Shown: one piece after another, positions 2,431 to 14,746 of the stretch
Position numbering within the stretch: the first letter of the stretch is position 1
How the letters are laid out: every line of letters starts with the position of its first letter
Origin: Armatimonadota bacterium
GTDB lineage: Bacteria > Sysuimicrobiota > Sysuimicrobiia > Sysuimicrobiales > Humicultoraceae
Length of the DNA: 15,440 bases
Direction of reading: 5' to 3'
Assembly: GCA_037446215.1 (NCBI GenBank)
Contig: JBBIJB010000035.1
Span: forward strand, 1 to 15,440
Position numbers and translations under genes: made by a program
Notes under the pieces: generated by a model
What the model saw: the letters and a program-made list of their open reading frames with translations, nothing else
Told to the model about the DNA's origin: nothing
Databases searched by the model: none

Positions 2431-5400
2431 GTGACGAGCGAGATCCTGGCGCTCCTTAGGGGGACGCCGGCCTACAGCGAGGTCAGGGAGGCCCTGCTCC
2501 GTGGGGCCTCGCCCCCGCTCGTCCTCGGGCCGGGGGGCAGCGCCGCCTCCCTCGTGGTCGCGGCCGCGGCCACGGATCCCGCGATCGCCGGGGGCATCCG
2601 TCGTGTGCTGGCAATCGCGCCGGATCGGGGCTCGGCCGTCCGGCTGGCCTCGGATCTCACGGCCCTCCTGGCCGAGGAGGGCTGGCGGGTCGTCGCCTAC
2701 ACAGGACCCGAGGTCCAGCCCGCGGAGGTCGAGCACACCCGGGAGCAGCTCGCCGCGCTCGCCGCGCTTCGGGGGCAAGAGGCCACGGCGGTCGTGGCGC
2801 CGGCCGCGGCGCTCGCCGAACCCCTCCCCTCACCGGAGTCGCTGGAGCTCGCCACCATCCGTGTGCGGGCAGGCCAGATCCTCCCCCGCGGCCACCTGGT
2901 CCGCGTGATCGAGGCCGGGGGCTACCAGCGCACCGGGCTGGTGGCCGGCCGCGGCGAGTTCGCGGTCCGCGGCGGGATAGTGGACCTCTTCCCCCCGGAC
3001 GCCGAGGCCCCGGTCCGAGTCGACCTGTGGGGCGACGAGGTGGATTCGGTCAGGACCTTCGACCCCCTCTCGCAGCGGGGGCTCGACCTGCTGGACGAGG
3101 CGGTGGTGAGGCCGGCGCTCCTCGACCCGGAGCGGGTCGGGCCCGCGTGGGTCTCTCTCGCCGACTACCTCCCGCCGGGAGGGATGCTGGCTCTCCTCGA
3201 GCCGGCCGAGTGCGAGACGGCCGTCCAGTCGCAGACGCGGAGGGAGGCGTCCCTGGAGGCACCCCAGGGCAGGATGACCCTCGCCGTCTCCGCCGCCCGC
3301 ACCCCGCGGGGGCGCTGGCAGGAGACGAGGATGGCCGCCGCCGGGGTCGAGGCCCACGGGGGGCAGACCCACCTGCTGGCGCAGATGCTGACCTCGCTCG
3401 CCGGTGAGGGACTGCACGTGGTGGTCGCGTCGGCCCAGGCGGAGCGGATGGCAGGGGTCCTGCGCGGCGCCGGGGTAGAGATAGGCCTCGCCGAGCCGGG
3501 CGCGGCAGGGGCGTTCCTCCCCGGCACGATCACCGCCGTCCAGGCCCCCCTGTGGAGGGGGTTCCGCCTGGACTGGGCAGGGCTCGCCGTAGTCACCGAC
3601 GCCGAGATCGTCGGTTGGCGGAGGCGCCGCCCGCGCATGCGCTTCCTCCGCGAGGGGGAGCGGATCACCTCCTTCGCCGACCTCTCGCCGGGCGACCTCG
3701 TGGTCCACCTCCACCACGGGATAAGCCGCTACCGGGGGCTCGTCCGCATGGGCGCCGACGGCGCCGAGCGCGAGTACATGCTGCTCGAGTACGCGGCCGA
3801 GGACCGGCTCTACGTTCCCACCGACCAGGTCGGGCTGGTGAACCGGTACATCGGCTCCGAGGGCGAGCAGGTGCGGATCCACCGCCTGGGCGGAGCCGAC
3901 TGGGAGCGCGAGAAGCGGCGGGTCAAGGAGGCGGCGCGCGAGATGGCCGCCTCGCTCCTCTCGCTCTACGCCGCGCGGGCCTCCGCGCCGGGCCACACCT
4001 TCGGGCCCGACACCCACTGGCAGCGCGAGATGGAGGAGGCGTTTCCCCACCGGGAGACGCCCGATCAGCGCGCGGCGATCGAGCAGGTCAAGCGCGACAT
4101 GGAGTCGCCCAGGCCGATGGACCGGCTGGTCGCGGGCGATGTCGGCTACGGCAAGACCGAGGTCGCGATGCGCGCCGCGTTCAAGGCGGTGATGGAGGGC
4201 AAGCAGGTCGCGGTGGTGGTGCCGACCACGGTGCTCGCGCAGCAGCACTACAACGTCTTCAGCGAGCGCTTCGCCCGCTTCCCCGTGACCGTCGAGATGA
4301 TCAGCAGGTTCCGCTCGCCCTCCGAGCAGCAGGAGATACTGCGGCGGACCGCCTCCGGGGGCGTGGACGTCCTGATCGGCACCCACAGGATCCTCGCGAA
4401 GGACGTGCGGTTCAGAGACCTCGGCCTGGTCGTCATAGACGAGGAGCAGCGGTTCGGCGTCGCGCACAAGGAGCGGCTCAAGGCGCTGCGGCGGAGCGTG
4501 GACGTGCTGACGCTGACCGCGACCCCGATCCCCCGCACGCTGCACATGTCGCTCTCCGGCCTGCGCGACATGACCGTGATGGAGACGCCGCCCGAGGCGC
4601 GCCTGCCCGTCCACACCGAGATCCGGCCGCAGTCGGACGAGACCATCCGGTACGCGATCGAGCGGGAGATCGCGCGGGGCGGTCAGGTCTACGTCGTCCA
4701 CAACAGGGTGATGTCGATCGAGCGCGCGGCCAGGCGGATCCGCGCGCTGGTACCGGAGGCGCGCGTGGCGGTGGCGCACGGGCAGATGGGCGAGGAGCGG
4801 CTGGAGGCGGTGATGCTCGACTTCCTGGGCGGCCACACCGACGTGCTGGTCTGCACCACGATAGTCGAGATCGGCCTCGACATCGCCCAGGTCAACACGG
4901 TAGTCATCGAGGACGCCCACCTGATGGGGCTGGCGCAGCTCTACCAGCTGCGCGGCCGTGTGGGGCGCGCGGACCGCCAGGCCTACTGCTACCTGCTCTA
5001 CCCGCAGAACGTGCCGCTCACCCCCGAGGCGGAGCAGCGGCTGCGGGCGATGGCCGAGTTCGTGGAGCTGGGATCCGGGCTGGGGCTGGCGATGCGCGAC
5101 CTCGAGATCCGCGGTGCCGGCAACATCCTGGGGCCTGAGCAGCACGGCCACGTGGCCGCGGTCGGATTCGACCTCTACTGCCGCCTGCTGGACGAGGCGA
5201 TAAGGGAGGCCCGCGGCGAGATCGTCGAGGAGCCGCGCGATCCCACGCTGGAGCTGGGGGTCAGCGCCCACCTGCCGCTGTCCTACGTCCCGTCCGAGGC
5301 CGATCGGATCGTGTTTTACAGGGGGCTCGGCGCCGCGCGCACCGCCGAGGAGGTCGAGGAGGCCGCCGCTCAGATGCAGGAGCGGTGGGGCCCTGCTCCG

Positions 5401-5694
5401 GATCCGGCGCTCGCCCTCCTGGACGCGGCGCGGCTGCGCGTCGCGGCCCGCGACGCCGGCGTCGCCTCGATAGCGCGCCAGGGCGGCGCCTTCGTGGTGC
5501 GCTTCTCCGAGGGCGGCCACATGGACGACGAGGCGCAGCGGCAACTGCGCGCGGCTCTGGGCAGGCGGGCACAGATCACCGCGAACGGCGTGACGGTGCC
5601 GGCCTCGGGCCGGACCTTCGGCGAGCAGGCCGCCTCCCTGGCCGACCTGATACGGCTGGCCGGGCGGCTGTCGTTGAGGGCAGCGGCAGGATAA
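2431..5694 (+). CDS. mfd: Transcription-repair coupling factor Mfd, 1087 aa
   Basis: UvrB-like N-terminal motif (GEFAVRGGIVDLFP), CarD-like RID (GDLVVHLHHGISRYRG...LYVP), Walker A GDVGYGKT, DEEQRFG, TATPIPRT, QLRGRVGR, TRG motif AMRDLEIRGAGN, C-terminal TRCF region. The GTG start is approximate. Confidence 0.98.
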   Translation: MTSEILALLRGTPAYSEVREALLRGASPPLVLGPGGSAASLVVAAAATDPAIAGGIRRVLAIAPDRGSAVRLASDLTALLAEEGWRVVAYTGPEVQPAEVEHTREQLAALAALRGQEATAVVAPAAALAEPLPSPESLELATIRVRAGQILPRGHLVRVIEAGGYQRTGLVAGRGEFAVRGGIVDLFPPDAEAPVRVDLWGDEVDSVRTFDPLSQRGLDLLDEAVVRPALLDPERVGPAWVSLADYLPPGGMLALLEPAECETAVQSQTRREASLEAPQGRMTLAVSAARTPRGRWQETRMAAAGVEAHGGQTHLLAQMLTSLAGEGLHVVVASAQAERMAGVLRGAGVEIGLAEPGAAGAFLPGTITAVQAPLWRGFRLDWAGLAVVTDAEIVGWRRRRPRMRFLREGERITSFADLSPGDLVVHLHHGISRYRGLVRMGADGAEREYMLLEYAAEDRLYVPTDQVGLVNRYIGSEGEQVRIHRLGGADWEREKRRVKEAAREMAASLLSLYAARASAPGHTFGPDTHWQREMEEAFPHRETPDQRAAIEQVKRDMESPRPMDRLVAGDVGYGKTEVAMRAAFKAVMEGKQVAVVVPTTVLAQQHYNVFSERFARFPVTVEMISRFRSPSEQQEILRRTASGGVDVLIGTHRILAKDVRFRDLGLVVIDEEQRFGVAHKERLKALRRSVDVLTLTATPIPRTLHMSLSGLRDMTVMETPPEARLPVHTEIRPQSDETIRYAIEREIARGGQVYVVHNRVMSIERAARRIRALVPEARVAVAHGQMGEERLEAVMLDFLGGHTDVLVCTTIVEIGLDIAQVNTVVIEDAHLMGLAQLYQLRGRVGRADRQAYCYLLYPQNVPLTPEAEQRLRAMAEFVELGSGLGLAMRDLEIRGAGNILGPEQHGHVAAVGFDLYCRLLDEAIREARGEIVEEPRDPTLELGVSAHLPLSYVPSEADRIVFYRGLGAARTAEEVEEAAAQMQERWGPAPDPALALLDAARLRVAARDAGVASIARQGGAFVVRFSEGGHMDDEAQRQLRAALGRRAQITANGVTVPASGRTFGEQAASLADLIRLAGRLSLRAAAG

Positions 5695-5710
5695 CCCGCG
5701 GCGATGCCGA

Positions 5711-5735
5711 ATTGTGCGCAAGATTGTGCACAATC
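5711..5735. promoter_or_regulatory. Tandem palindromic operator, likely the binding site of the adjacent GntR regulator
   Basis: Perfect 14-bp palindrome GATTGTGCACAATC at 5722-5735, preceded by a near copy ATTGTGCGCAA at 5711-5721 (12-bp period). It is an AT-rich island in GC-rich DNA and fits the GntR-family GT-Nx-AC palindrome pattern. Confidence 0.75.
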
Positions 5736-5765
5736 CCGATAGGCTTCGGTGGTCCGGGAGCGAAG

Positions 5766-6461
5766 ATGCCGCGGCAGGGAAGGGCGACCAACACGTCGGC
5801 CACCCTCAAGGAGCGCGCCCACTCGCGCCTTCGAACAGAGATCCTCGAGGGCAAGATCCCCCAGGGCGCGGACCTGCGCGAGGCCGACCTGAGCCGGCGG
5901 CTGGGGATCAGCCGCACCCCGCTGCGCGAGGCCCTAAGCCGGCTCGCAGAGGAGGGTCTGGTCGAGGTCCTCCCCTACAGAGGCGCGCGCGTCGTGCTCC
6001 TGAACGGCTCCCACCTCGCGGAGATCTTCGAGGTTCGCGAGGCGATCGAAGGGCTGGCCGCGCGCCTGGCCGCCGAGCGCATGTCGGAGAAGCACATCGC
6101 GGAGTGCAGGCAGAAGTTCAGTGCGCGCCTGCGCGAGGTAGGCCGGAGGCCCAACGCCTACCACGCCCCCACCAGGGACTTCCACCGTGAGATCCTCCAC
6201 GCGTCGGGGAACGCGGTGCTTCTCGACATCTCCCACCGTCTCCACGCGCGCATGACCCTGGCCCGCGCGGTCTCGGGCGCGTTCCACCAGCGGTCGGCCG
6301 AGGCGGCGCGCGAGCACCTGGCGATCCTCGCCGCGGTCGAGGAGCGCGACGGCTGCGCGGCGGAGCGGCTGATGCGCCGACACATAAGGCAGTCCCGCGA
6401 CAACCTCCTGGAGTACTTCGAGGATGTGGGTCGGGAGCAGGAGCGCATATGGACAGGCTAG
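5766..6461 (+). CDS. GntR-family transcriptional regulator (wHTH + FCD domain), 231 aa
   Basis: ATG 5766 after a GGGAG RBS, within track ORF 5385-6461. wHTH LREADLSRRLGISRTPLREALSRL..EGLV...PYRGARV. FCD motifs E.FEVREAIEG, DFH..I..ASGN, EHLAIL.A, MRRHI. Confidence 0.95.
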   Translation: MPRQGRATNTSATLKERAHSRLRTEILEGKIPQGADLREADLSRRLGISRTPLREALSRLAEEGLVEVLPYRGARVVLLNGSHLAEIFEVREAIEGLAARLAAERMSEKHIAECRQKFSARLREVGRRPNAYHAPTRDFHREILHASGNAVLLDISHRLHARMTLARAVSGAFHQRSAEAAREHLAILAAVEERDGCAAERLMRRHIRQSRDNLLEYFEDVGREQERIWTG

Positions 6462-7663
6462 CGGACTACCTCAGCCCCCACGTCCGGAGGCCCGAGGTCA
6501 GGGACGAGTCGCGCCTGCCGGACGAGATCGTCGTCTGCGACTGCACCGCGCGCGAGGGAGACCAGGCCGCCTCGGCCGAGTTCGGGGTGGAGGCGAAGGT
6601 GGCGCTGATCCGACTGCTGGACGAGATCGGTGTCCCGCAGGCGCAGGCGGGCTACCCGGGCAAGGCGCGGACGGACGCGGAGACGGTCCTCCGGGTCAAG
6701 AGGCTCGGCCTCCGGATCAAGGTCGAGGCGATCACCCAGGTCTTCGATCCCGACTGGCGCGACGAGGTGGATGCGGCGATCGAGTGCGGGCCCGACATCA
6801 TAGACATCCAGCTGCCCTGCTCCGACCAGCGGCTGCGGCTGCTGCTGAAGATGACGCGCGAGGAGATGCTCGAGCGGGCGGTCGAGGCGATCGGCCGGGC
6901 CCGGGGCCGCGTGCCGATCGTCCGCTTCGCGCCCACCGACACCACCCGCGCCGACCTCGACTTCGTTCGAACCCTGTTCGGGGCGGCGCTGGACGCGGGC
7001 GCGGACCGGCTCTCGGTGGCGGACACCGCTGGCGCGATGTTCCCGCCGGCGATGCGCTGGATGGTGGGCGCGCTGACGCGCGAGTTCGACGTGCCTCTCC
7101 AGGTGCACTGCCACAACGACTTCGGCCTGGCGCTGGCCAACACCCTCGCCGCGGCCGAGGGCGGCGCCTCGATCCTCGACGTGACCGTGAACGGACTGGG
7201 CGAGCGGGCGGGCAGCGCCTGCATGGACGAGACGGTGCTGGCGCTGGAGGCGTTCTACGGGGTCCGGACCGGGATCGCGACCGAGGACCTCTTCAAGCTC
7301 TCCCATCTGGTGGCCGAGTGGACCGGCATCCCGATCCCCGTCCACAAGCCGCTGGTGGGCGAGAGCGCCTTCTCGCACAAGCTCGAGGGCCACGTGCGCG
7401 GAGTACTCACCTCCCCCCCTCTCTACGAGCCCCTCCCGCCCGAGCTCGTAGGCAACAGGAGGCGCATCCTGATCGGCAAGTACAGCGGCATGAACGCGGT
7501 GCGCTACCGCCTCGGGCAGGCGGGCATCGAGGTGAGCGACGAGCAGGCCCGCAGGGTGGTGGGCGCGCTGCGGAAGGTCTGGGATCGCGGGGAGACAGGC
7601 ACCCTGTCGGACGACGCCTTCCTCGCGCTCGCCGAGGAGGCGCTACGCCAGTGGCCGCGCTGA
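6449..7663 (+). CDS. DRE-TIM metallolyase, LeuA/homocitrate synthase/citramalate synthase-like, atypical and lacking a regulatory domain, 404 aa
   Basis: DCTAREGDQ (cf. DTTLR[D/E]GEQ), ADTAG, HCHNDFGLALANTLAA (metal-binding HxH), TVNGLGERAG, KPLVG, YEPLPPELVG, GKYSG. AGGAG RBS. Overlaps the gntR stop by 13 nt. Confidence 0.9.
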   Translation: MDRLADYLSPHVRRPEVRDESRLPDEIVVCDCTAREGDQAASAEFGVEAKVALIRLLDEIGVPQAQAGYPGKARTDAETVLRVKRLGLRIKVEAITQVFDPDWRDEVDAAIECGPDIIDIQLPCSDQRLRLLLKMTREEMLERAVEAIGRARGRVPIVRFAPTDTTRADLDFVRTLFGAALDAGADRLSVADTAGAMFPPAMRWMVGALTREFDVPLQVHCHNDFGLALANTLAAAEGGASILDVTVNGLGERAGSACMDETVLALEAFYGVRTGIATEDLFKLSHLVAEWTGIPIPVHKPLVGESAFSHKLEGHVRGVLTSPPLYEPLPPELVGNRRRILIGKYSGMNAVRYRLGQAGIEVSDEQARRVVGALRKVWDRGETGTLSDDAFLALAEEALRQWPR

Positions 7664-8907
7664 CGATAGCCGAGAGGATCCTGTCGCGGCGCTGCGGCAG
7701 GGAGGCGCACGCCGGAGAGTTCGTCGTCGCCGAGGTAGACGTGATGATGGCGCACGACGGCAACCGGCCGCTGGTGATAGACACCCTCCGCGAGCTCGGG
7801 TTCGCAAAGCCGCGCCGGCCCGCGCAGCTGTTCCTGGTGCTGGACCACGCGGTCCCGCCGCCGACCGCGGTGGTGGCGAACATCCACGACCGGATGAGGG
7901 CGTTCGCCGAGGAGCACGGCTCCAACCTGCTCGAGGAGGGCGAGGGCGTCTGCCACATCGCGCTGCCCGAGCTGGGCCACGTCAGGCCCGGGGACCTGGT
8001 CGTGGGATCGGACTCCCACACCACCACGCTCGGCGCCGTCAACTGCCTGGCGACGGGCATGGGCTCATCGGACATGGCGCTCGCCGCGGCCAAGGGCGAG
8101 GTGTGGTTCAGGGTGCCGGAGACGCTGCGCATCGTGCTCGGCGGCGCGCCCGGGCCGGGGGTCGACGCGAAGGACGTGGCGCAGTACCTGATCCGCCGCC
8201 TCGGGCTGCACCGGTCCAACTACCGCTCGCTGGAGTTCCAGGGCCCGGCGGTGGCACAGATGAGCATGGACGGGCGCTTCACGCTGGCGAACGCCGCGGT
8301 CGAGCTGGGCGCCAAGTGCGGGATCTTCCCTGGCGACGCCGTGCTCCGATCGTGGCTGGAGGGGCGGATCGAGGGGAGATTCGAGTTCGTCGCGCCCGAT
8401 CCGGGCGCCGTCTACGAGGAGAGCTTCGAGTTCGATCTCGGCGGCCTGGCCCCGCAGGTGGCGCGCCCCCACTCGCCGGGCGACGTCGTGGACGTCGGCG
8501 AGGTCGAGGGGACGCCGGTGCAGATGGTGTTCATCGGCACCTGCAGCGCGGGCCGCCTGGACGACCTGCGGGCGGCGGCGCGGGTGCTGGAAGGCCGCAG
8601 CCTGTCGCCCGGCGTCAGGATGGTGGTCGCCCCGGGCTCGGCCGAGGTCTACCACTCGGCGCTGCGCGAGGGCGTGATCGAGACGCTTGTCACGGCAGGG
8701 GCCTGCATCGTCCCGCCCGGCTGCGGCCCGTGCGCGGGAATAGCCCAGGGCATCCCGGCCGACGGCGAGAACGTGGTCTCCTCCGGCCCGCGCAACTTCC
8801 GCGGACGGATGGGCAACCCCGAGGCGAACATCTTTCTCGCGTCGGCCGCCACGGCCGCCGCCTCTGCGTATGTCGGCGCCATCACCGATCCCAGGCGCCT
8901 GCTGTGA
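7651..8907 (+). CDS. Aconitase-family hydro-lyase large subunit (3-isopropylmalate dehydratase LeuC/HacA/DmdA-like), 418 aa
   Basis: GTG 7651 after GAGGAGG, in the frame of track ORF 6424-8907. Motifs TIAERIL, DHAVP, GVCH, GSDSHT, three Fe-S Cys (GTCSAGR, GCGPC), RNFRGRMG, LASAATAAASA..G.ITDPR. Confidence 0.93.
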   Translation: MAALTIAERILSRRCGREAHAGEFVVAEVDVMMAHDGNRPLVIDTLRELGFAKPRRPAQLFLVLDHAVPPPTAVVANIHDRMRAFAEEHGSNLLEEGEGVCHIALPELGHVRPGDLVVGSDSHTTTLGAVNCLATGMGSSDMALAAAKGEVWFRVPETLRIVLGGAPGPGVDAKDVAQYLIRRLGLHRSNYRSLEFQGPAVAQMSMDGRFTLANAAVELGAKCGIFPGDAVLRSWLEGRIEGRFEFVAPDPGAVYEESFEFDLGGLAPQVARPHSPGDVVDVGEVEGTPVQMVFIGTCSAGRLDDLRAAARVLEGRSLSPGVRMVVAPGSAEVYHSALREGVIETLVTAGACIVPPGCGPCAGIAQGIPADGENVVSSGPRNFRGRMGNPEANIFLASAATAAASAYVGAITDPRRLL

Positions 8908-8917
8908 GGAGGAGCCC

Positions 8918-9442
8918 GTGATCATAGAGGGACGCGCGCACCGCGTCGGCGACGACGTCAACACCGACTACATCATCCCGGCCCGGCACAAGAGCCGCAC
9001 AGAGGACATCGCATCGCTGGTGCCGGTGCTGTTCGAGGACCTCGATCCCACGCTGGCCTCGCGGATCAGGCCGGGCGACCTGGTCGCGGCGGGCCACAAC
9101 TTCGGCATGGGCTCGTCGCGCGAGACCGCCCCGCGCCTGCTGCGCGCGGCCGGCATCTCGGCTGTGCTCGCCGCCTCGTTCGCCAGGATCTTCTTCCGGA
9201 ACGCGGTCAACGTCGGGCTGCCCGTGGTCGAGTGCGACACCTCGCAGATAGCCGACGGCGACGTGGTGCTGGTGGACCTGGAGGCGGGATCGGCCAGGAT
9301 CCCCGCGCGCGGGGTCGAGATCAAGGCCCATCCCCTGCCCCCGCTCATGCTCGAGATCCTGCGCTCCGGCGGCATCAAGGGCTACCTGGAGGCCCAGGGC
9401 AGGAGCGTCCGAAGGCCCAGGAAGGGAGAGGACAGGGTGTGA
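8918..9442 (+). CDS. Aconitase-family hydro-lyase small subunit (LeuD/HacB/DmdB-like), 174 aa
   Basis: GTG 8918 after GAGGAGG. Motifs GDDVNTDYIIP, NFGMGSSRE.A, ASFARIFFRNAVNVGLP, GG near the C-terminus. Confidence 0.93.
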   Translation: MIIEGRAHRVGDDVNTDYIIPARHKSRTEDIASLVPVLFEDLDPTLASRIRPGDLVAAGHNFGMGSSRETAPRLLRAAGISAVLAASFARIFFRNAVNVGLPVVECDTSQIADGDVVLVDLEAGSARIPARGVEIKAHPLPPLMLEILRSGGIKGYLEAQGRSVRRPRKGEDRV

Positions 9443-9467
9443 GCGGCTACGGAGGGAGGCGAGGCCG

Positions 9468-10337
9468 GTGAACGGACGGGAGTGGCTGCGCCGGCGGTTG
9501 GCCGAGGGCCCGATCCTCTTGGCCCCTGGCACGTTCGACGCGCTGAGCGCCAGGATCGTCGAGTACTGCGGCTTCGAGGCGGTCTACGTCAGCGGCGGGG
9601 CGATCTCGCGCAGCATGGGCTTCCCGGATGTGGGCCTCGCGACCATGGACGAGATGGTGGGGCGGATCGCGACGATCTGTGAGGCCACCTCTCTCCCTGT
9701 GATCGCCGACGCCGACACCGGCTACGGCAACCCCCTCAACGTCCGGCGGACCGTGCGCGAGTGGGAGCGCGCCGGCGTCGCCGCCCTCCACCTCGAGGAT
9801 CAGGTCACCCCGAAGCGCTGCGGCCACTACGAGGGTAAGGTGCTGATCTCCACGGAGGAGATGGTCTCGAAGCTCCGGGCCGCGGTCGAGGCGCGCCGCG
9901 AGGAGACCGTGATCATAGCGCGCACCGACGCGCGCGCGGTGGAAGGGTTGGAGGGGGCGCTGACGCGGGCGCGCGCCTACAGCGAGGCCGGCGCCGACGT
10001 CCTGTTCGTCGAGGCACCCCAGTCCGTGGAGGAGATAAGGAGGATCGCCCGCTCCCTGGCCGGCCCCCTGATGATCAACATCTTCGTCGGCGGCAAGACG
10101 CCGGTGGTGCCCTCGGGCGAGCTCGACCGGATGGGCTACCGGCTGGCGATCTATCCCAGCGACCTGCAGAGGGCTGCGATCTTCGCGATGATCGGATGCG
10201 GTCGCCACCTGCGCGACTCGGGGACGGTCGAGGGGTTCGCGCCTGTGGTCTCGTTCCAGGACCGCGAGGTCCTGATCAACGCGGCCCTGTGGGCCGGGCT
10301 GTCGGAGCGCTACGGAACGCCGCCCTCAGGGGCGTAG
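9468..10337 (+). CDS. Isocitrate lyase/PEP mutase superfamily C-C lyase (2,3-dimethylmalate lyase / 2-methylisocitrate lyase-like), 289 aa
   Basis: APGTFDALSA, G.PDVG, DADTGYG, HLEDQVTPKRCGH, IARTDA, AGADVLFVEA, GGKTP. GGAGG RBS. Confidence 0.93.
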   Translation: MNGREWLRRRLAEGPILLAPGTFDALSARIVEYCGFEAVYVSGGAISRSMGFPDVGLATMDEMVGRIATICEATSLPVIADADTGYGNPLNVRRTVREWERAGVAALHLEDQVTPKRCGHYEGKVLISTEEMVSKLRAAVEARREETVIIARTDARAVEGLEGALTRARAYSEAGADVLFVEAPQSVEEIRRIARSLAGPLMINIFVGGKTPVVPSGELDRMGYRLAIYPSDLQRAAIFAMIGCGRHLRDSGTVEGFAPVVSFQDREVLINAALWAGLSERYGTPPSGA

Positions 10338-10364
10338 GCGGCGGGGAGCAGGAGGCTGATCGGG

Positions 10365-11786
10365 GTGGCACACGCGCAGGGTAGGACGACGGCGGAGATC
10401 ACCGGACCCCTGGCGGAGTGGGTGGCAGGGCTGCGCCTCGAGGAGGTACCGGCCGAGGTCGTGGGCTACGCCAAGCTGGCGCTGCTGGACACGCTGGGCT
10501 GCGGGCTGTTCGGCAGCACCCTGCCGTGGGGACAGACGGTGGTCAGGTTCGCGCGGCGGCTGGGGCGTGGCGGAGAGGCCACGGTCTGGGGAGACGGGTG
10601 CCTGCTGCCGGCGGCCAACGCGGCGCTGGCCAACGGCACGCTGGTCCACGCGTTCGAGATGGACGACCTCCACGCCCGCGGCGTGCTCCACCCCGGCTCG
10701 GTGACCGCGACGGCGGCGTTCGCTCTGGCGGAGCGGCGGGAGCGCGGGCGCAAGGCGCCGGTGGAGGGGAGACGCGTGCTGGAGGCGATCGTCGCCGGCT
10801 ACGAGGTCGGCGCGCGCGTCGGGCTGGCGTGCGGCTACGCCAAGCTGAAGAAGGGGTTCCACCCGGCCGCCACCACCGGCGTCTTCTGCGCGGCCGCGGC
10901 GGCGAGCCGCATCCTCAACCTGAACGCCGAGGCGACCCATGACGCGCTCGGCACCGCGGGCACCCAGGCGGCCGGGCTGATGGCGTCGCAGTACGGCTCG
11001 ATGGTCAAGAGGATGCACATGGGGCTGGCGGCCCAGAGCGGCATCTACGGCGCGGACCTGGCCGCGATGGGGTTCCGCGGGGTCAGGGGCGTGCTGGAGG
11101 CGCCCTACGGCGGCTTCCTGGGCACGCTGGTCGGGGAGGCGGCCGAGCCCGCGGCGATACTGGATGGGCTCGGCGAGCGCTACGAGATGCTCGGGGTCGG
11201 CTTCAAGATCTACCCGTCGTGCGGCAGCTCGCACACAACGATAGACGCGCTGCTGGCGATCCGCGAGCGCTGCCCGGACCTGAGCCCGGACGCGGTGGAG
11301 TCGGTCGAGATCCACACCACCACGGCCGTGCGGGACCACGTGGGTTGGCCCTACGTCCCCGACACCGTGACCTCGGCCCAGATGAACCTGCCGTTCACCG
11401 CGGCGACGCTGCTGCGCGACGGCGCGCTCACCGTGGAGTCGTTCGCCGACCACCGGCTGCGCGACCCCGAGCTGGTCTCGCTCGCGGGCCGGGTGACCGT
11501 CCTGGCCGACCCCGAGCTCGACGCCATGGGACGCGACCGCCGCCACACCGTCCGGGTGGCCGTCCTCCTCAACGACGGCCGGCGGTTCGAGGAGAGCCGC
11601 ACCCACGGCAAGGGGACCGCGAAGAACCCGGTCTCGCCCGAGGAGCTGCGGGCGAAGTTCGCCGACCTCGCCGGCCGCGTGGTCGGCGACGGCCGGGCGG
11701 CGGCGATCAGGGAGATGGTGGAGGATCTGGAGCAGCTGCCCGCGATCACGCCTCTGGCGGACGCGATGGTGGGCCCCGAAGAGTAG
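10365..11786 (+). CDS. MmgE/PrpD family protein, 473 aa
   Basis: LLDTLGC, AALANGT..HAFEMDD.H, HPG, GYEV, GFH, ALG.AGTQAAGL, KRMH.G.AA..G, FKIYPSC..SH, KG...NP...EEL..KF. GGAGG RBS. Confidence 0.95.
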   Translation: MAHAQGRTTAEITGPLAEWVAGLRLEEVPAEVVGYAKLALLDTLGCGLFGSTLPWGQTVVRFARRLGRGGEATVWGDGCLLPAANAALANGTLVHAFEMDDLHARGVLHPGSVTATAAFALAERRERGRKAPVEGRRVLEAIVAGYEVGARVGLACGYAKLKKGFHPAATTGVFCAAAAASRILNLNAEATHDALGTAGTQAAGLMASQYGSMVKRMHMGLAAQSGIYGADLAAMGFRGVRGVLEAPYGGFLGTLVGEAAEPAAILDGLGERYEMLGVGFKIYPSCGSSHTTIDALLAIRERCPDLSPDAVESVEIHTTTAVRDHVGWPYVPDTVTSAQMNLPFTAATLLRDGALTVESFADHRLRDPELVSLAGRVTVLADPELDAMGRDRRHTVRVAVLLNDGRRFEESRTHGKGTAKNPVSPEELRAKFADLAGRVVGDGRAAAIREMVEDLEQLPAITPLADAMVGPEE

Positions 11787-11808
11787 GACTACGGGGAGGT
11801 GCACTGAG

Positions 11809-12795
11809 ATGAAGCCGGAAAGAGTGGCAGTCGTGGTGCTTGTCGTCCTGGCGCTGGCCCTGGGCGGGGCGGCCGTCGCGGGTCCGGCGTGGCAGCCGAG
11901 CGGCACGGTCGAGCTGGTGCCGGCGGGCGATCCCGGGGGCGGGCTCGACCTCCACGCGCGCATCGTCTCGGAGGTCTTCCGCAAGGAGAAGATCCCTCCG
12001 CAGCGGTTCATAATAAACAACATGGGCGGCGCCGGCGGCAACACCGCCCGCTCCTACCTGAACACCAAGCGCGGCGACGGGAACGTGGTCGTGCTCGAGA
12101 GCAACCGCGCCTACCTGGCCGAGCTGCTCGGCACGACCAGGCTGCGCGTCAACAAGGACTTCACGGCGATCGCTCGCCTGACCGCCGATTACATAGTCTG
12201 GGCCGTGCGCAAGGACTCCAAGTTCAAGACCGCCAAGGAGGTCCTCGACGCGATCAAGCAGGACCCGGCGTCGGTCAGCTTCGGCGTCGGCACGGTGCCG
12301 AGCAACGACCAGTTCCACATCATCAGGGCCGCCCGCGCCGCCGGGGCCAGGGCCGCGGCGGTCCGCATCACGGCGTTTAGGGCCGGCGGCGACCTGATGG
12401 CGCAGCTTCTGGGCGGCCACGTGCAGGTGATCTCCACCGGGCTCTCAGAGGCGATCACCCAGCAGGAGGCCGGCGAGATCCGCATCCTGGTGGTGACCGC
12501 GCCGAGGCGGCTGGGCGGCGCGCTGGCCTCGATCCCGACCTGGCGCGACCAGGGGATCGACCTCGTCATCGAGCACTGGCGCGGCGCGTTCGGCGCGCCC
12601 GACCTCCCTCCGGCGGCGGTCTCGTTCTGGGTCGAGGCGTTCGCGGCGATGCGCCAGGCGGAGTACTGGGACGGGCTGATCCGCCGCTACAACCTCTTCG
12701 ACTCGTTCCTCCCTTCGGATCGGTTCGCGCAGTCCCTCGAGCGGGAGCGCGAGCTGACCTCGGAGCTGCTGAAAGAGCTGGGATTCATCAAGTAG
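11809..12795 (+). CDS. tctC: Tripartite tricarboxylate transporter substrate-binding protein (TctC/Bug family), 328 aa
   Basis: Signal peptide, VPAGDPGGGLDLHAR and NMGGAGG carboxylate-pincer-type motifs, LLGGHV, IPT..DQGID, WRG.FG. GGGGAGGT RBS. Confidence 0.93.
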   Translation: MKPERVAVVVLVVLALALGGAAVAGPAWQPSGTVELVPAGDPGGGLDLHARIVSEVFRKEKIPPQRFIINNMGGAGGNTARSYLNTKRGDGNVVVLESNRAYLAELLGTTRLRVNKDFTAIARLTADYIVWAVRKDSKFKTAKEVLDAIKQDPASVSFGVGTVPSNDQFHIIRAARAAGARAAAVRITAFRAGGDLMAQLLGGHVQVISTGLSEAITQQEAGEIRILVVTAPRRLGGALASIPTWRDQGIDLVIEHWRGAFGAPDLPPAAVSFWVEAFAAMRQAEYWDGLIRRYNLFDSFLPSDRFAQSLERERELTSELLKELGFIK

Positions 12796-12809
12796 GGCGT
12801 GATGAGATC

Positions 12810-13253
12810 ATGACGATGAGGGCCGACCGCGCCCTGCTGGGGCTGCTGCTGGCGGTCTCGGTGGGCTACACCTTCCTGGGGACGCGGATCTTCGTGCCGC
12901 CGATCGTCGCCGACCCGCTGGGGCCGCGGGCCTTCCCGCTGTTCCTGGGGGTCTTTGGGATCGTGCTGTGCGCGGCGCTGCTGCTGAGCAGGCCGGTCGA
13001 GTCGGGGATTACCGTCACCCCGGCCGTGCTGCGCGGGCTGGCGGCGATCCTGGCCGTGATGGCCGCCTACGCGCTGCTGCTGCCGCGCCTCGGCTTCGTC
13101 ATCGCCACCACCGGGCTGCTGGCCGCCGGGTTCGCGCACGCCGGCGGCCGGCGCCCGCTCATACCGGCGGTCATCTACGCCCTGGCCGTCTACCTGCTGT
13201 TCACCCGGCTGCTCGGGCTGCGGCTGCCCTCGGGGTTGCTGCCGTGGCTGTGA
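12810..13253 (+). CDS. tctB: Tripartite tricarboxylate transporter small membrane subunit TctB, 147 aa
   Basis: About 4-5 hydrophobic segments, DPLGPRAFP, LGFVIAT, C-terminal F..LLG..LP.G. Lies between tctC and tctA. Confidence 0.9.
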   Translation: MTMRADRALLGLLLAVSVGYTFLGTRIFVPPIVADPLGPRAFPLFLGVFGIVLCAALLLSRPVESGITVTPAVLRGLAAILAVMAAYALLLPRLGFVIATTGLLAAGFAHAGGRRPLIPAVIYALAVYLLFTRLLGLRLPSGLLPWL

Positions 13254-14746
13254 TACCCCAGCTCCTGGCCGGCTTCTCGTCGGCGCTCAACCTCGACAAC
13301 CTCTTCTCGGCGGTGCTCGGTTGCTTCCTCGGCACGATCGTCGGGATACTGCCGGGGCTCGGGCCCTCCACCACTGTCGCGCTGCTCATACCGGTCGCGT
13401 TCGCGGTGCGCCCCGACACGATGCTCATAATGATGTGCGGGGTCTACCTCGGCGCGATGTACGGCGGCTCGCTCACCTCGATCCTGCTCAAGGTGCCGGG
13501 CGAGGCCTCCTCGGCGATCACCGCGATAGACGGCTTCGAGATGGCGAAGCAGGGCCGCGCCGGGCAGGCGCTGGCGATCTCGGCGATAGGGTCGTTCATC
13601 GGGGGCACGCTCTCGGTCGTCGCGCTGACGGTCGTGGCGCGCCCCATCTCCCAGGCCGCGCTCAAGTTCGGGCCGTCGGAGTACTTCGCGCTTATGGCCT
13701 TCGCGCTGGTGATGTCGGCGACGCTGATAGGCAGGTCGCTGCCGCGCGGGCTGCTGGCGGTGGTGCTCGGGATCATGCTCTCGATGGTCGGCTCCGACCT
13801 CCAGACCGGCGTGCCCCGCTTCACGCTGGGGATAGGCGAGCTGCTGGACGGCATAGACGTCGTGGTGGTGATAATCGGCGTCTTCGGCGTCGCCGAGGTG
13901 CTCTACTACCTGCTGCACGAGCGCCGGGCCGGCGGCGAGCGGATAGCGCTGCGCGGGCGGCTGTGGCTGTCGCGCGACGACTGGCGGAGGGCGGCGGCGC
14001 CGGTGGGCCGCGGCACCATCGTCGGCTTCTTCGCGGGCGTGATGCCGGGCTCGGGCAGCACGCTCGGATCGCTGCTCGCCTACGCGGTCGAGGGGCGCTT
14101 CGGTGGGGCGAAGCGGCGGCTCGGCGGCGGCGCGATCGAGGGCGTGGCCTCGGTGGAGACCGCCAACAACTCCGCGACCGGCGGCGCGCTGATCCCTATG
14201 TTCACGCTCGGCATCCCGGGCTCGGGCACCACCGCGGTGCTGCTGGCGGTGCTGCTGATGTACGGGGTGCAGCCCGGGCCGCGCCTGATGATCCAGCAGG
14301 CCGACCTGTTCTGGACCGTGGTCGCCTCGCTCTACATAAGCAACGTGATCCTGCTGGTGATGAACCTGCCCATGATCCCGCTCTTCGTCCGGATCCTGGA
14401 CATCCCGGCCAGGTTCCTCATGCCGGCGATCGGCGTCTTCGCGGCCGTGGGCGCCTACTCGATAAACAACATGGTCGCCGACGTCTGGCTGGTCTTCCTG
14501 TTCGGCCTGCTGGGATACGCGATGAGGTGGGCGGGGATGCCGCCGGTGGCGATGGTGCTCGGCATGGTGCTGGGCGACCGGCTGGAGCAGTCGCTGCGCC
14601 AGGCGTTCATCCTCAGCAACCAGTCGTTCGCCTTCCTGCTGCGCCCGATCACCCTCACCCTGCTGCTGCTGACGGCGGCGGTCGTCCTGGCGGACGTCGT
14701 CGCTAAGTCGCGCGAGCGGAGGCAAGGCGCGGAGGGCTCGGGCTAG
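13250..14746 (+). CDS. tctA: Tripartite tricarboxylate transporter large membrane subunit TctA, 498 aa
   Basis: GTG 13250 in a GTGA overlap with the tctB stop. Motifs G..VGILPGLGP, GAMYGGS..SILL.VPG, DGFEMAKQG, FGPSEYF, G.D..TG.PRFT.G, ETANNS, LGIPGS, G..PGP. Confidence 0.95.
   Translation: MIPQLLAGFSSALNLDNLFSAVLGCFLGTIVGILPGLGPSTTVALLIPVAFAVRPDTMLIMMCGVYLGAMYGGSLTSILLKVPGEASSAITAIDGFEMAKQGRAGQALAISAIGSFIGGTLSVVALTVVARPISQAALKFGPSEYFALMAFALVMSATLIGRSLPRGLLAVVLGIMLSMVGSDLQTGVPRFTLGIGELLDGIDVVVVIIGVFGVAEVLYYLLHERRAGGERIALRGRLWLSRDDWRRAAAPVGRGTIVGFFAGVMPGSGSTLGSLLAYAVEGRFGGAKRRLGGGAIEGVASVETANNSATGGALIPMFTLGIPGSGTTAVLLAVLLMYGVQPGPRLMIQQADLFWTVVASLYISNVILLVMNLPMIPLFVRILDIPARFLMPAIGVFAAVGAYSINNMVADVWLVFLFGLLGYAMRWAGMPPVAMVLGMVLGDRLEQSLRQAFILSNQSFAFLLRPITLTLLLLTAAVVLADVVAKSRERRQGAEGSG

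Follow-up and report, generated by a model that had tools for sequence, protein, structure and literature searches.

A conserved organic-acid uptake and conversion operon in Sysuimicrobiota that may encode a methylcitrate-cycle-like route

In the methylcitrate cycle encoded by prpBCDE of Escherichia coli, a Claisen synthase, an MmgE/PrpD-family protein, an aconitase-superfamily hydro-lyase and a PrpB-family lyase act in a four-step logic. In its nicotinate fermentation, Eubacterium barkeri uses the 2,3-dimethylmalate dehydratase DmdAB and the dimethylmalate lyase Dml. The characterised functions of the MmgE/PrpD family are methylcitrate dehydratase, cis-aconitate decarboxylase (CAD), iminodisuccinate (IDS) epimerase and (S)-(R)-methylsuccinate isomerase; these characterised members all act at C2 of a 1,4-dicarboxylate via an enolate, and proteins of the family, mostly uncharacterised, occur in about one-fifth of prokaryotic species (PMC12290011). 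Here we describe a block of nine genes in a 15.4-kb stretch of DNA (hereafter the window, about 71% GC), which is the whole of contig C35 in a 91%-complete assembly of 149 contigs and 2.16 Mb. Among public genomes, Candidatus Sysuimicrobiota metagenome-assembled genomes (MAGs) come closest. The block is clearly an operon for the uptake and conversion of an acid. All four catalytic roles of the methylcitrate cycle are represented in it, three of them by proteins of the canonical superfamilies (MmgE/PrpD, aconitase and PrpB/isocitrate lyase (ICL)). With somewhat less than even confidence, we favor the reading that non-canonical members of these families here make up a route resembling the methylcitrate cycle, which handles a branched tricarboxylate (methylcitrate or homocitrate type) and is linked to import.

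From the observed gene content, conservation of the block, operator and residue patterns, we infer the following steps, substrates and effector. TctCBA, a tripartite tricarboxylate transporter (TTT), would import a carboxylate, and a GntR/FCD repressor would leave its palindromic operator upon binding an acid effector. A DRE-TIM protein would form a tertiary-alcohol tricarboxylate by condensing oxaloacetate or 2-oxoglutarate, as the dicarboxylic 2-oxoacid, with an acyl-CoA, for which propionyl-CoA is the likeliest candidate. The MmgE/PrpD protein and a LeuCD-type Fe-S hydro-lyase would shift the hydroxyl by dehydration and rehydration, and a PrpB-like lyase would split the product into pyruvate and a dicarboxylate. 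The transporter may also bring the same intermediate in from outside. This scheme shares with the E. coli cycle its order of reactions and, in the lyase, the KRCGH loop and the specificity triad. Unlike that cycle, the window has a DRE-TIM synthase candidate rather than one of the citrate-synthase fold, a two-subunit LeuCD as its hydro-lyase and no prpE; its MmgE/PrpD protein and lyase fail the PrpD and PrpB equivalog models, and the TTT importer and the GntR/FCD regulator lie inside the operon.

The nine genes lie on the + strand between 5766 and 14746, co-oriented and tightly packed, with junctions ranging from a 13-nt overlap to a 27-nt gap. All nine were confirmed when assignments were judged against NCBIfam equivalog and subfamily cut-offs, Pfam domains and matches to solved structures. 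The initial annotation had proposed nine packed genes behind one operator, and the coordinates, domains and conserved palindrome agree with that; its block start at 5711 falls in the operator region, and the likely first start codon is at 5766. A consensus scan, which is low-powered, found no + strand terminator-like site inside the block. Among the 13 window open reading frames (ORFs) scanned with Pfam and NCBIfam, none carries an Iso_dh, CoA-ligase, CoA-transferase, citrate-synthase or PrpF domain, so the earlier statement that LeuB, CoA ligase or transferase, PrpC and PrpF are missing is borne out. Domain scans of the window likewise found no phosphonopyruvate decarboxylase, C-P genes or nicotinate-pathway genes.

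To determine how widely the block is distributed, we searched 94 genomes of the phylum, a set that includes the unpublished G017 and G025, which have paralog-level matches only. Some MmgE/PrpD match was present in 63 of the 94 genomes, and an ortholog (68-100% identity) in only four: G000, G027, G006 and G039. The three other carriers have all nine genes in identical order at 59-89% amino-acid identity, more than chance would explain, and the flanking genes differ in every carrier genome. Because the block is kept whole while its flanks vary, it behaves as a cassette. Its carriers are a few hot-spring and subsurface bacteria. The identities of a metagenome contig, L264, equal those of G027, and the two are probably one population. 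Between leuD and lyase, the three other carriers have two additional membrane genes, half-size members of the AbrB family (PF05145), at L003:7908-9094, L067:10647-11700 and the corresponding place in L004; these are absent from the window.

The second gene of the block (6449-7663, + strand) encodes a 404-aa DRE-TIM protein with HMGL-like and HCS_D2 domains (Pfam, 192 and 63 bits) and without a LeuA_dimer domain. Its best solved relative is the homocitrate synthase (HCS) of Sulfolobus (223 bits). It scores below the cut-off for all 25 NCBIfam models listed, of 28 families matched, and its best equivalog score is 364 bits against a cut-off of 517 (leuA, cimA, nifV, lysS class). The features of a Claisen DRE-TIM synthase are present, namely the barrel and subdomain II, the Arg, the metal ligands and equivalents of His388 and Tyr399 (BjMAMS numbering). 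Alignment with solved enzymes recovered the motifs REGDQ, HCH, SHKLEGH and PLYEP, and the equivalents of Thr257 and Gln93 are kept. At the position of BjMAMS Glu227, the window protein has Thr, in the motif VRFAPTDTTRAD. The E227A and E227D variants of BjMAMS are inactive and E227Q is impaired 22-37-fold; according to its authors, the Glu227 carboxylate positions Tyr399 and His388 and is not a base (PMC11532901).

To see how far this substitution extends, we compared 125 sequences, the 120 best database matches plus five added. Glu is absent from 103 of them (T in 79, V in 13, A in 5, M in 4, F in 1 and P in 1). In a FastTree phylogeny 99 of these 103 form one clade, with basal support of only 0.49, and the four Met-bearing proteins, which are about 500 aa long, lie elsewhere in the tree. 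The residue two places ahead of the catalytic His is Asp or Glu, mostly in the form HKL[DE]xH, in 91 of the 103 Glu-less proteins and in none of the 22 Glu-bearing ones, although kinship among the sequences means that these counts overstate independence. We read this acidic residue beside the catalytic His as a moved carboxylate, so that Claisen chemistry would stay possible; the synthase machinery looks rearranged, not lost. The proposal that a DRE-TIM synthase replaces PrpC stands on the retained His, Tyr and metal ligands and is weakened by the absent Glu227 equivalent, and it is from the former that we infer synthase activity. At the TtHCS Arg133 position, the window protein has Arg, and Arg or Lys is found there in 71 of the 103 Glu-less proteins and in none of the 22 of Glu type. 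HCS His72 is replaced by Gln and Ser135 by Ala; the roles that we attach to these three TtHCS residues are presumed. In source databases, clade members are named only 'LeuA family protein' or 'hypothetical', and names in ESM Atlas and sequence clusters are only the generic 'LeuA family' or 'homocitrate synthase family'. A 45% homolog is carried by the cultured Thermaerobacter sp. FW80. A pattern scan of genome contigs for the clade returned at least 80 loci, but these are 31-42% relatives and one pattern matched ordinary LeuA-family genes, so they are uninformative on the clade.

We next consider the genes that accompany this protein. For seven distinct DRE-TIM genes (at least 51% identity, usable flanks), LeuCD is adjacent or within 4 kb in all seven, the lyase within 10 kb in six, TTT genes are present in six and MmgE/PrpD in three. 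The Chloroflexi MAG UBA6077 (G094) has three DRE-TIM copies of the window type (51-54% identity) with LeuCD beside each. One of its contigs reads TctC-TctA-lyase-LeuC-LeuD-lyase(broken)-DRE-TIM-transposase, and another DRE-TIM-LeuC-LeuD-TctCBA-DRE-TIM-LeuC-LeuD-lyase; upstream of that second set are a leuB-type dehydrogenase, a fumarate-reductase-like flavoprotein and a TPR regulator. Among the 401 Chloroflexota genomes sampled, with at most four candidates scored per genome, G094 alone gave a close match. The metagenome contigs L265 and L266, counted once, carry GntR-DRE-TIM (66% identity), then 3.7 kb with a GcvPB-like gene, then LeuCD and a hydantoinase-like gene, and have no lyase, MmgE/PrpD or TTT genes within reach. 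At the start of an Anaerolineae MAG contig (L070:123-3218), a 1031-aa ORF begins with the first 273 residues of the DRE-TIM type (74% identity) and continues in frame into alpha-2-macroglobulin domains; we took it for a probable assembly chimera and left it out of the DRE-TIM counts.

The missing glutamate also raises the possibility that the DRE-TIM protein is a metal-dependent aldolase or lyase that acts on a 2-oxoacid intermediate without CoA, making the whole route CoA-free. Both E227A and E227D abolish BjMAMS activity, and the DRE-TIM superfamily does include aldolases and lyases (PMC11532901). Moreover, relatives at 40-48% identity adjoin amidohydrolases, a class-III aminotransferase, an ornithine-cyclodeaminase-like gene and MFS or peptide transporters, neighborhoods typical of the breakdown of nitrogen-containing acids. 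We nonetheless regard an aldolase as improbable, given that the residues corresponding to His388, Tyr399 and Gln93, with roles in acetyl-CoA chemistry, are retained along with HCS_D2, that the acidic residue near the catalytic His has a distribution that looks compensatory and that the close pairing of DRE-TIM with LeuCD mirrors synthase-isomerase pairs.

The LeuC-type gene (7651-8907, + strand) encodes a 418-aa paralog of the large subunit of [4Fe-4S] hydro-lyases, and the following gene (8918-9442, + strand) a small subunit of LeuD/DmdB type (TIGR02087). LeuC passes the IPMI_arch (483 bits, cut-off 410), hacA_fam (472, cut-off 386) and NF001614 (500, cut-off 385) models and fails the LeuC and HacA equivalogs, with LEU2 at 392 bits against a cut-off of 611; it has both Cys motifs (GTCS and GCGPC). 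LeuD scores 162 bits with the 'LeuD/DmdB' model, above the cut-off of 109, fails the leuD equivalog (143 against 246) and has the GSSRE motif. The pair therefore classifies with the LeuCD/HacAB/DmdAB two-subunit hydro-lyases, and not as isopropylmalate isomerase (IPMI) proper.

Specificity in these enzymes is set by a five-residue substrate-recognition region of the small subunit (PMC7308503). In solved structures this loop is YLVYT in Methanocaldococcus IPMI, YN-LT in the Pyrococcus enzyme and YL-RT in Methanocaldococcus homoaconitase. The window LeuD has the loop ARHKSRTED, with HKSRT at the recognition region and its Arg aligned with the homoaconitase Arg. We compared 19 LeuDs (the window protein and 18 homologs) and found a basic loop with one extra residue (Y/H-K-[STA]-[RK]) in seven of the eight encoded beside this DRE-TIM type, the exception being the LeuD of the first set on contig C7 of G094 (loop YIQ). 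None of the other 11 has it, these being the LeuD of the genome's own leucine genes (YLV), nine clostridial lyase-linked proteins and one alphaproteobacterial protein. The basic loop suggests an anionic substituent on the substrate. Together, the best solved match of the DRE-TIM protein, its REGEQ motif, its Arg at the Arg133 position and the HacB-like loop Arg liken the locus to the HCS of Sulfolobus and Thermus and the HacAB of Methanocaldococcus. It differs from them in the Glu to Thr change, in having a lyase in place of a homoisocitrate dehydrogenase and in reaching none of the equivalog cut-offs.

The fifth gene (9468-10337, + strand) encodes a PrpB-like C-C lyase of the PEP_mutase/ICL family. 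It scores 286 bits with the prpB model, below the cut-off of 354, and 134 bits with PEP mutase. Among solved structures, methylisocitrate lyases, dimethylmalate lyase and petal death protein are near-equal matches, at 190-200 bits. Retained in the window lyase (E. coli PrpB numbering) are D85, D87, the KRCGH catalytic loop, R158, E188, N210 and R241, and the triad Phe186/Leu234/Pro236 appears as F/I/P. Isocitrate lyases have Trp/Phe/Thr in place of this triad, which sets specificity (PMC13692135). A PrpB-type triad implies that the 2-oxoacid released by the lyase is probably pyruvate, not glyoxylate, and that the substrate would be a methyl-bearing tertiary alcohol; a substrate derived from acetyl-CoA would not give pyruvate at this step. 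The motif at 210-217, NIFVGGKT in the window, has the form NIF[VKA]GGKT in homologs at 53-57% identity from Binatia, Stellaceae and others (also NMFWGGKT), and is NITEFGAT in PrpB and NMVEGG[KR]T in clostridial LeuCD-linked lyases.

The triad is also the first obstacle to a citrate/isocitrate shunt, in which TctCBA would import citrate, the MmgE/PrpD protein and LeuCD would produce isocitrate, the lyase would release glyoxylate and succinate and the DRE-TIM protein would serve as a malate-synthase analogue. TctC-type transporters were first described for citrate. In addition, no malate synthase (PF01274) was found in the 91%-complete genome, and tblastn with window queries, the lyase included, found no further PrpD or PrpB/ICL-type homologs in it. 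Nevertheless, the triad is of PrpB and not ICL type, the DRE-TIM Arg suits a distal carboxylate, which glyoxylate lacks, and the genome already has a citrate synthase (PF00285 matches on contigs C36 and C21) and two AcnA-like aconitases, all of which make such a shunt very improbable.

A DRE-TIM synthase encoded with an aconitase-family isomerase and a PEP-mutase-superfamily protein recalls the biosynthesis of FR-900098 and phosphinothricin. The block could thus be a biosynthetic module, either for 2-oxoacid chain elongation or for a phosphonate-type pathway in which, as with FrbC/FrbA, a synthase and an isomerase work with a PEP-mutase-family enzyme, and the best NCBIfam match of its GntR protein, sub-threshold at 96 bits against a cut-off of 271.5, is a phosphonate-utilization regulator. 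We give this idea very little credence. The lyase has the Cys loop KRCGH and scores far higher with prpB than with PEP mutase; the window has no Iso_dh-family dehydrogenase, phosphonopyruvate decarboxylase or C-P genes; an uptake transporter with an FCD repressor is typical of catabolism; and canonical leucine and isoleucine genes are present elsewhere in the genome. The latter lie consecutively on contig C14 as ilvB, ilvC, leuA (762 bits), leuC (614), leuD, cimA (738), leuB (487) and ilvD, with a LeuCD that passes or nearly passes the equivalog models. The window DRE-TIM protein is 32-33% identical to the genome's own LeuA and CimA, its LeuC 42% and its LeuD 52% identical to their counterparts. 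This canonical set rules out that the window genes are the only leu genes of the genome and upholds the earlier distinction between the block and leuABCD. On the same contig, ilvB (L001:37-1793) is split into two overlapping ORFs that cover acetolactate synthase model positions 1-438 and 449-555, a frameshift or assembly error.

The sixth gene (10365-11786, + strand) encodes a 473-aa enzyme that Pfam places in the MmgE/PrpD family. Its best solved matches are human CAD (141 bits), Bacillus 'IRG1' (115) and IDS epimerase (113), and PrpD structures score 38-42 bits. Judged by these scores, CAD/IRG1 and IDS epimerase are closer to the protein than PrpD is; it is not a PrpD, as which it had at first been taken. 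Of eight active-site residues of human CAD (PMC6789909), H103, H159, K207 and K272 are kept and four are changed (D93E, T97L, H277C and Y318H). Because the retained residues are family-wide, they do not name the reaction. The change of Asp93 to Glu is also seen in the Pseudomonas isomerase (PMC6789909; PMC12290011). In the epimerases of the family (IDS epimerase and methylsuccinate isomerase), a second catalytic base, Tyr145 or Tyr148, precedes the conserved His by four to five residues; in the window protein, inspection by eye places the closest Tyr 8 residues ahead of that His. Thus the protein resembles IRG1/ACOD1, IDS epimerase and methylsuccinate isomerase in its best solved matches and its family-wide His and Lys residues; it differs in the positions of CAD Thr97, His277 and Tyr318 and in a gene context unrelated to the itaconate and methylsuccinate CoA pathways. 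Elsewhere in the phylum, the MmgE/PrpD family is strongly expanded in G069 (up to 13 matches, several in tandem), G070, G059, G079 and other genomes.

An enzyme from this side of the family would also fit the main rival to our reading, the CoA-free degradation of a C5-C7 dicarboxylate that is taken up from outside, is branched or unsaturated and belongs to the itaconate, citraconate or dimethylmaleate type, by the logic of the Mii-DmdAB-Dml steps of clostridial nicotinate fermentation. Here the MmgE/PrpD protein would be a double-bond isomerase or epimerase, LeuCD would hydrate the maleate-type product, the lyase would yield pyruvate and a monocarboxylate, and the DRE-TIM protein would be peripheral. 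The family includes two epimerases or isomerases and a C2-protonating decarboxylase (PMC12290011), and it is these that the window protein most resembles. As in DmdAB/Dml, a LeuCD-type hydro-lyase is encoded directly upstream of a pyruvate-releasing ICL-family lyase, and LeuD passes the 'LeuD/DmdB' model. LeuC-LeuD-lyase triads (47-56% lyase identity) are common in Clostridia; the one in Desulfallas is accompanied by ETF, an OYE-type reductase, an isochorismatase and an amidohydrolase, a nicotinate-type context. In a Thermoanaerobacteraceae MAG (L147), three lyase genes and two LeuC-LeuD pairs alternate in tandem. Despite these parallels, we think this rival unlikely. The clostridial LeuD loops are of the YL[TSNV] type and not the basic YKSR type, and the lyase motif at 210-217 differs from the clostridial one. 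Nor does it explain the DRE-TIM protein, whose translation is coupled to that of LeuC and whose gene always has leuC with it. Compared with DmdAB/Dml, the window adds this protein, MmgE/PrpD and TTT and has no nicotinate-pathway neighbors.

Pairs of lyase and MmgE/PrpD homologs (41-46% and 42-46% identity, respectively) recur in Proteobacteria and Actinomycetota. In Brucella daejeonensis (L006:5225-12403), TcuA and a second MmgE/PrpD gene are divergent from GntR/FCD, lyase, MmgE/PrpD and a full-length AbrB membrane protein. A Binatia contig (L099:8461-13148) reads TcuA-lyase-MmgE/PrpD-enoyl-CoA hydratase, and the TcuA proteins of the two score 553 (Brucella) and 497 bits (Binatia) against a cut-off of 369. 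TcuA oxidizes tricarballylate to cis-aconitate, and its presence beside homologous lyase and MmgE/PrpD pairs again points to tricarboxylate chemistry; these clusters may represent an uncharacterized route for tricarballylate-like acids. They share with our locus side-by-side homologs of GntR/FCD, the ICL-like lyase (41-56%) and MmgE/PrpD (30-43%), and AbrB is also found in three of the four Sysuimicrobiota clusters. Unlike the cassette, they have no DRE-TIM and no LeuCD and add a tricarballylate-dehydrogenase-type flavoprotein, and the window for its part has no AbrB genes. In Rhodobacterales, AbrB, TctCBA, GntR and the lyase occur together.

The first gene of the block (5766-6461, + strand) encodes a 231-aa regulator with a GntR domain (Pfam, 57 bits) and an FCD effector domain (87 bits). 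Its likely start is the ATG at 5766, preceded by GGGAG, a context shared by the G027 ortholog. A tandem GntR/FadR-type operator is predicted at 5710-5735, about 30 nt upstream of the gntR start: within the 70-nt gap before gntR, the site AATTGTGCGCAA at 5710-5721 is followed by a perfect palindrome, GATTGTGCACAATC, at 5722-5735, and ATTGTGCACAAT is the candidate GntR site ahead of the block. The consensus operator of the GntR/FadR subfamily is a palindrome of the TnGTnnnACnA type, and the features of that subfamily (winged-helix GntR domain, FCD domain and palindromic operator) are all present. In each of the four orthologous clusters, gntR is preceded by a TTGTnnACAA core, which in two of them, those of G027 and Calidihabitans, overlaps a promoter-like stretch, TTGACA...TATAC(T/A); a promoter scan of the window found no sigma-70-like sites. 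The palindrome and the core upstream of gntR in every cluster support a single autoregulated operator. The regulator falls below every NCBIfam equivalog cut-off, and its orthologs (59-64% identity) head the cluster in the three other genomes.

The last three genes, all on the + strand, make up a complete TTT: the substrate-binding protein TctC (11809-12795; Pfam, 68 bits), the small membrane subunit TctB (12810-13253; 59 bits) and the large membrane subunit TctA (13250-14746; 495 bits). No ligand can be assigned to TctC, because its best solved relatives reach only 84 bits. TctA is 85-89% identical to its counterparts in the three other orthologous clusters, and the genome holds six TctA genes in all. 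Near one of the paralogs, on contig C45 (L002:799-1680), is a PEP-mutase/phosphonopyruvate-hydrolase-like gene (315 bits, cut-off 374). Upstream of the block lies mfd (2431-5694), preceded by three + strand ORFs (2-583, 659-1900 and 1934-2434) without a Pfam or NCBIfam match, and a SurA/PrsA-like isomerase gene follows the block. No RNA sequencing run containing the stretch is listed, only DNA runs of subsurface metagenomes.

What, then, speaks for a methylcitrate-cycle-like route, and what against it? Taken together, the pyruvate-type triad of the lyase, the basic LeuD loop, the basic pocket residue of the DRE-TIM protein and the TcuA link point to a methyl-branched tricarboxylate. On the same side stand the absence of a second PrpD or PrpB homolog from the genome by tblastn, the conservation of the nine genes as a block and the constant nearness of LeuCD to the DRE-TIM genes of at least 51% identity. 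Several observations weigh on the other side, beginning with the Thr at the Glu227 position. In the lyase, Thr212 is replaced by Phe, Phe214 by Gly and Ala216 by Lys, and Arg270 is unaligned; Thr212, Phe214 and Arg270 presumably form part of the succinate site of PrpB. The MmgE/PrpD protein scores 47.8, 44.3 and 37 bits with PrpD equivalogs whose cut-offs are 575, 458 and 950. The more distant DRE-TIM relatives (40-48% identity) have LeuCD adjoining in none of six cases. The operon has no CoA ligase or transferase, and an importer with an acid-sensing GntR regulator implies an external substrate, which also suits the dicarboxylate route. Methylmalonyl-CoA mutase is found in 91 of the 94 phylum genomes, including all four carriers, so propionyl-CoA already has a route and the cassette is not needed for it; a complementary distribution of cassette and mutase was rejected on the same count. 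Finally, a Petroclostridium set consists of a PrpR_N-type activator, a CitMHS/MatC transporter, LeuC, LeuD, lyase, DUF1847 and MmgE/PrpD, with no synthase. The initial annotation had offered two models, a methylcitrate-cycle analogue and an import-and-cleave route. Residue evidence from the lyase triad, the LeuD loop and the DRE-TIM Arg leans toward the former, and the synthase-free Petroclostridium set keeps the latter alive.

A stronger version of the methylcitrate-cycle-like reading, which we hold to be doubtful, is that the cassette encodes a complete, non-orthologous methylcitrate cycle. The DRE-TIM carboxylate would have left the barrel for the helix next to the catalytic His, and the product would be of the methylcitrate or methylhomocitrate type. 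An IRG1-like MmgE/PrpD protein and a basic-loop LeuCD would isomerize it, a new PrpB-like clade would cleave it and TTT would take up the same class of acid. If true, this would be a previously unrecognized tricarboxylate pathway in these bacteria.

Our literature searches found no description of this gene combination and no characterized equivalent of what, as initially proposed, looks like a catabolic cassette. The main text of the paper describing Sysuimicrobiota makes no mention of methylcitrate, propionate, tricarboxylate, isocitrate lyase, glyoxylate or organic acid. The cassette appears as a variant on known pathways, the methylcitrate cycle and the dimethylmalate module. Four of its five enzymes belong to clades without a characterized member (the Glu-less DRE-TIM, the basic-loop LeuCD, the PrpB-like lyase and the IRG1-like MmgE/PrpD protein), and their conserved joint arrangement is a handle for assigning all four clades at once. 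The DRE-TIM clade may show a relocated catalytic-site carboxylate in a well-studied superfamily, and the known metabolism of Sysuimicrobiota, an uncultured phylum of hot springs and the subsurface, would be widened by an organic-acid substrate through the cassette.

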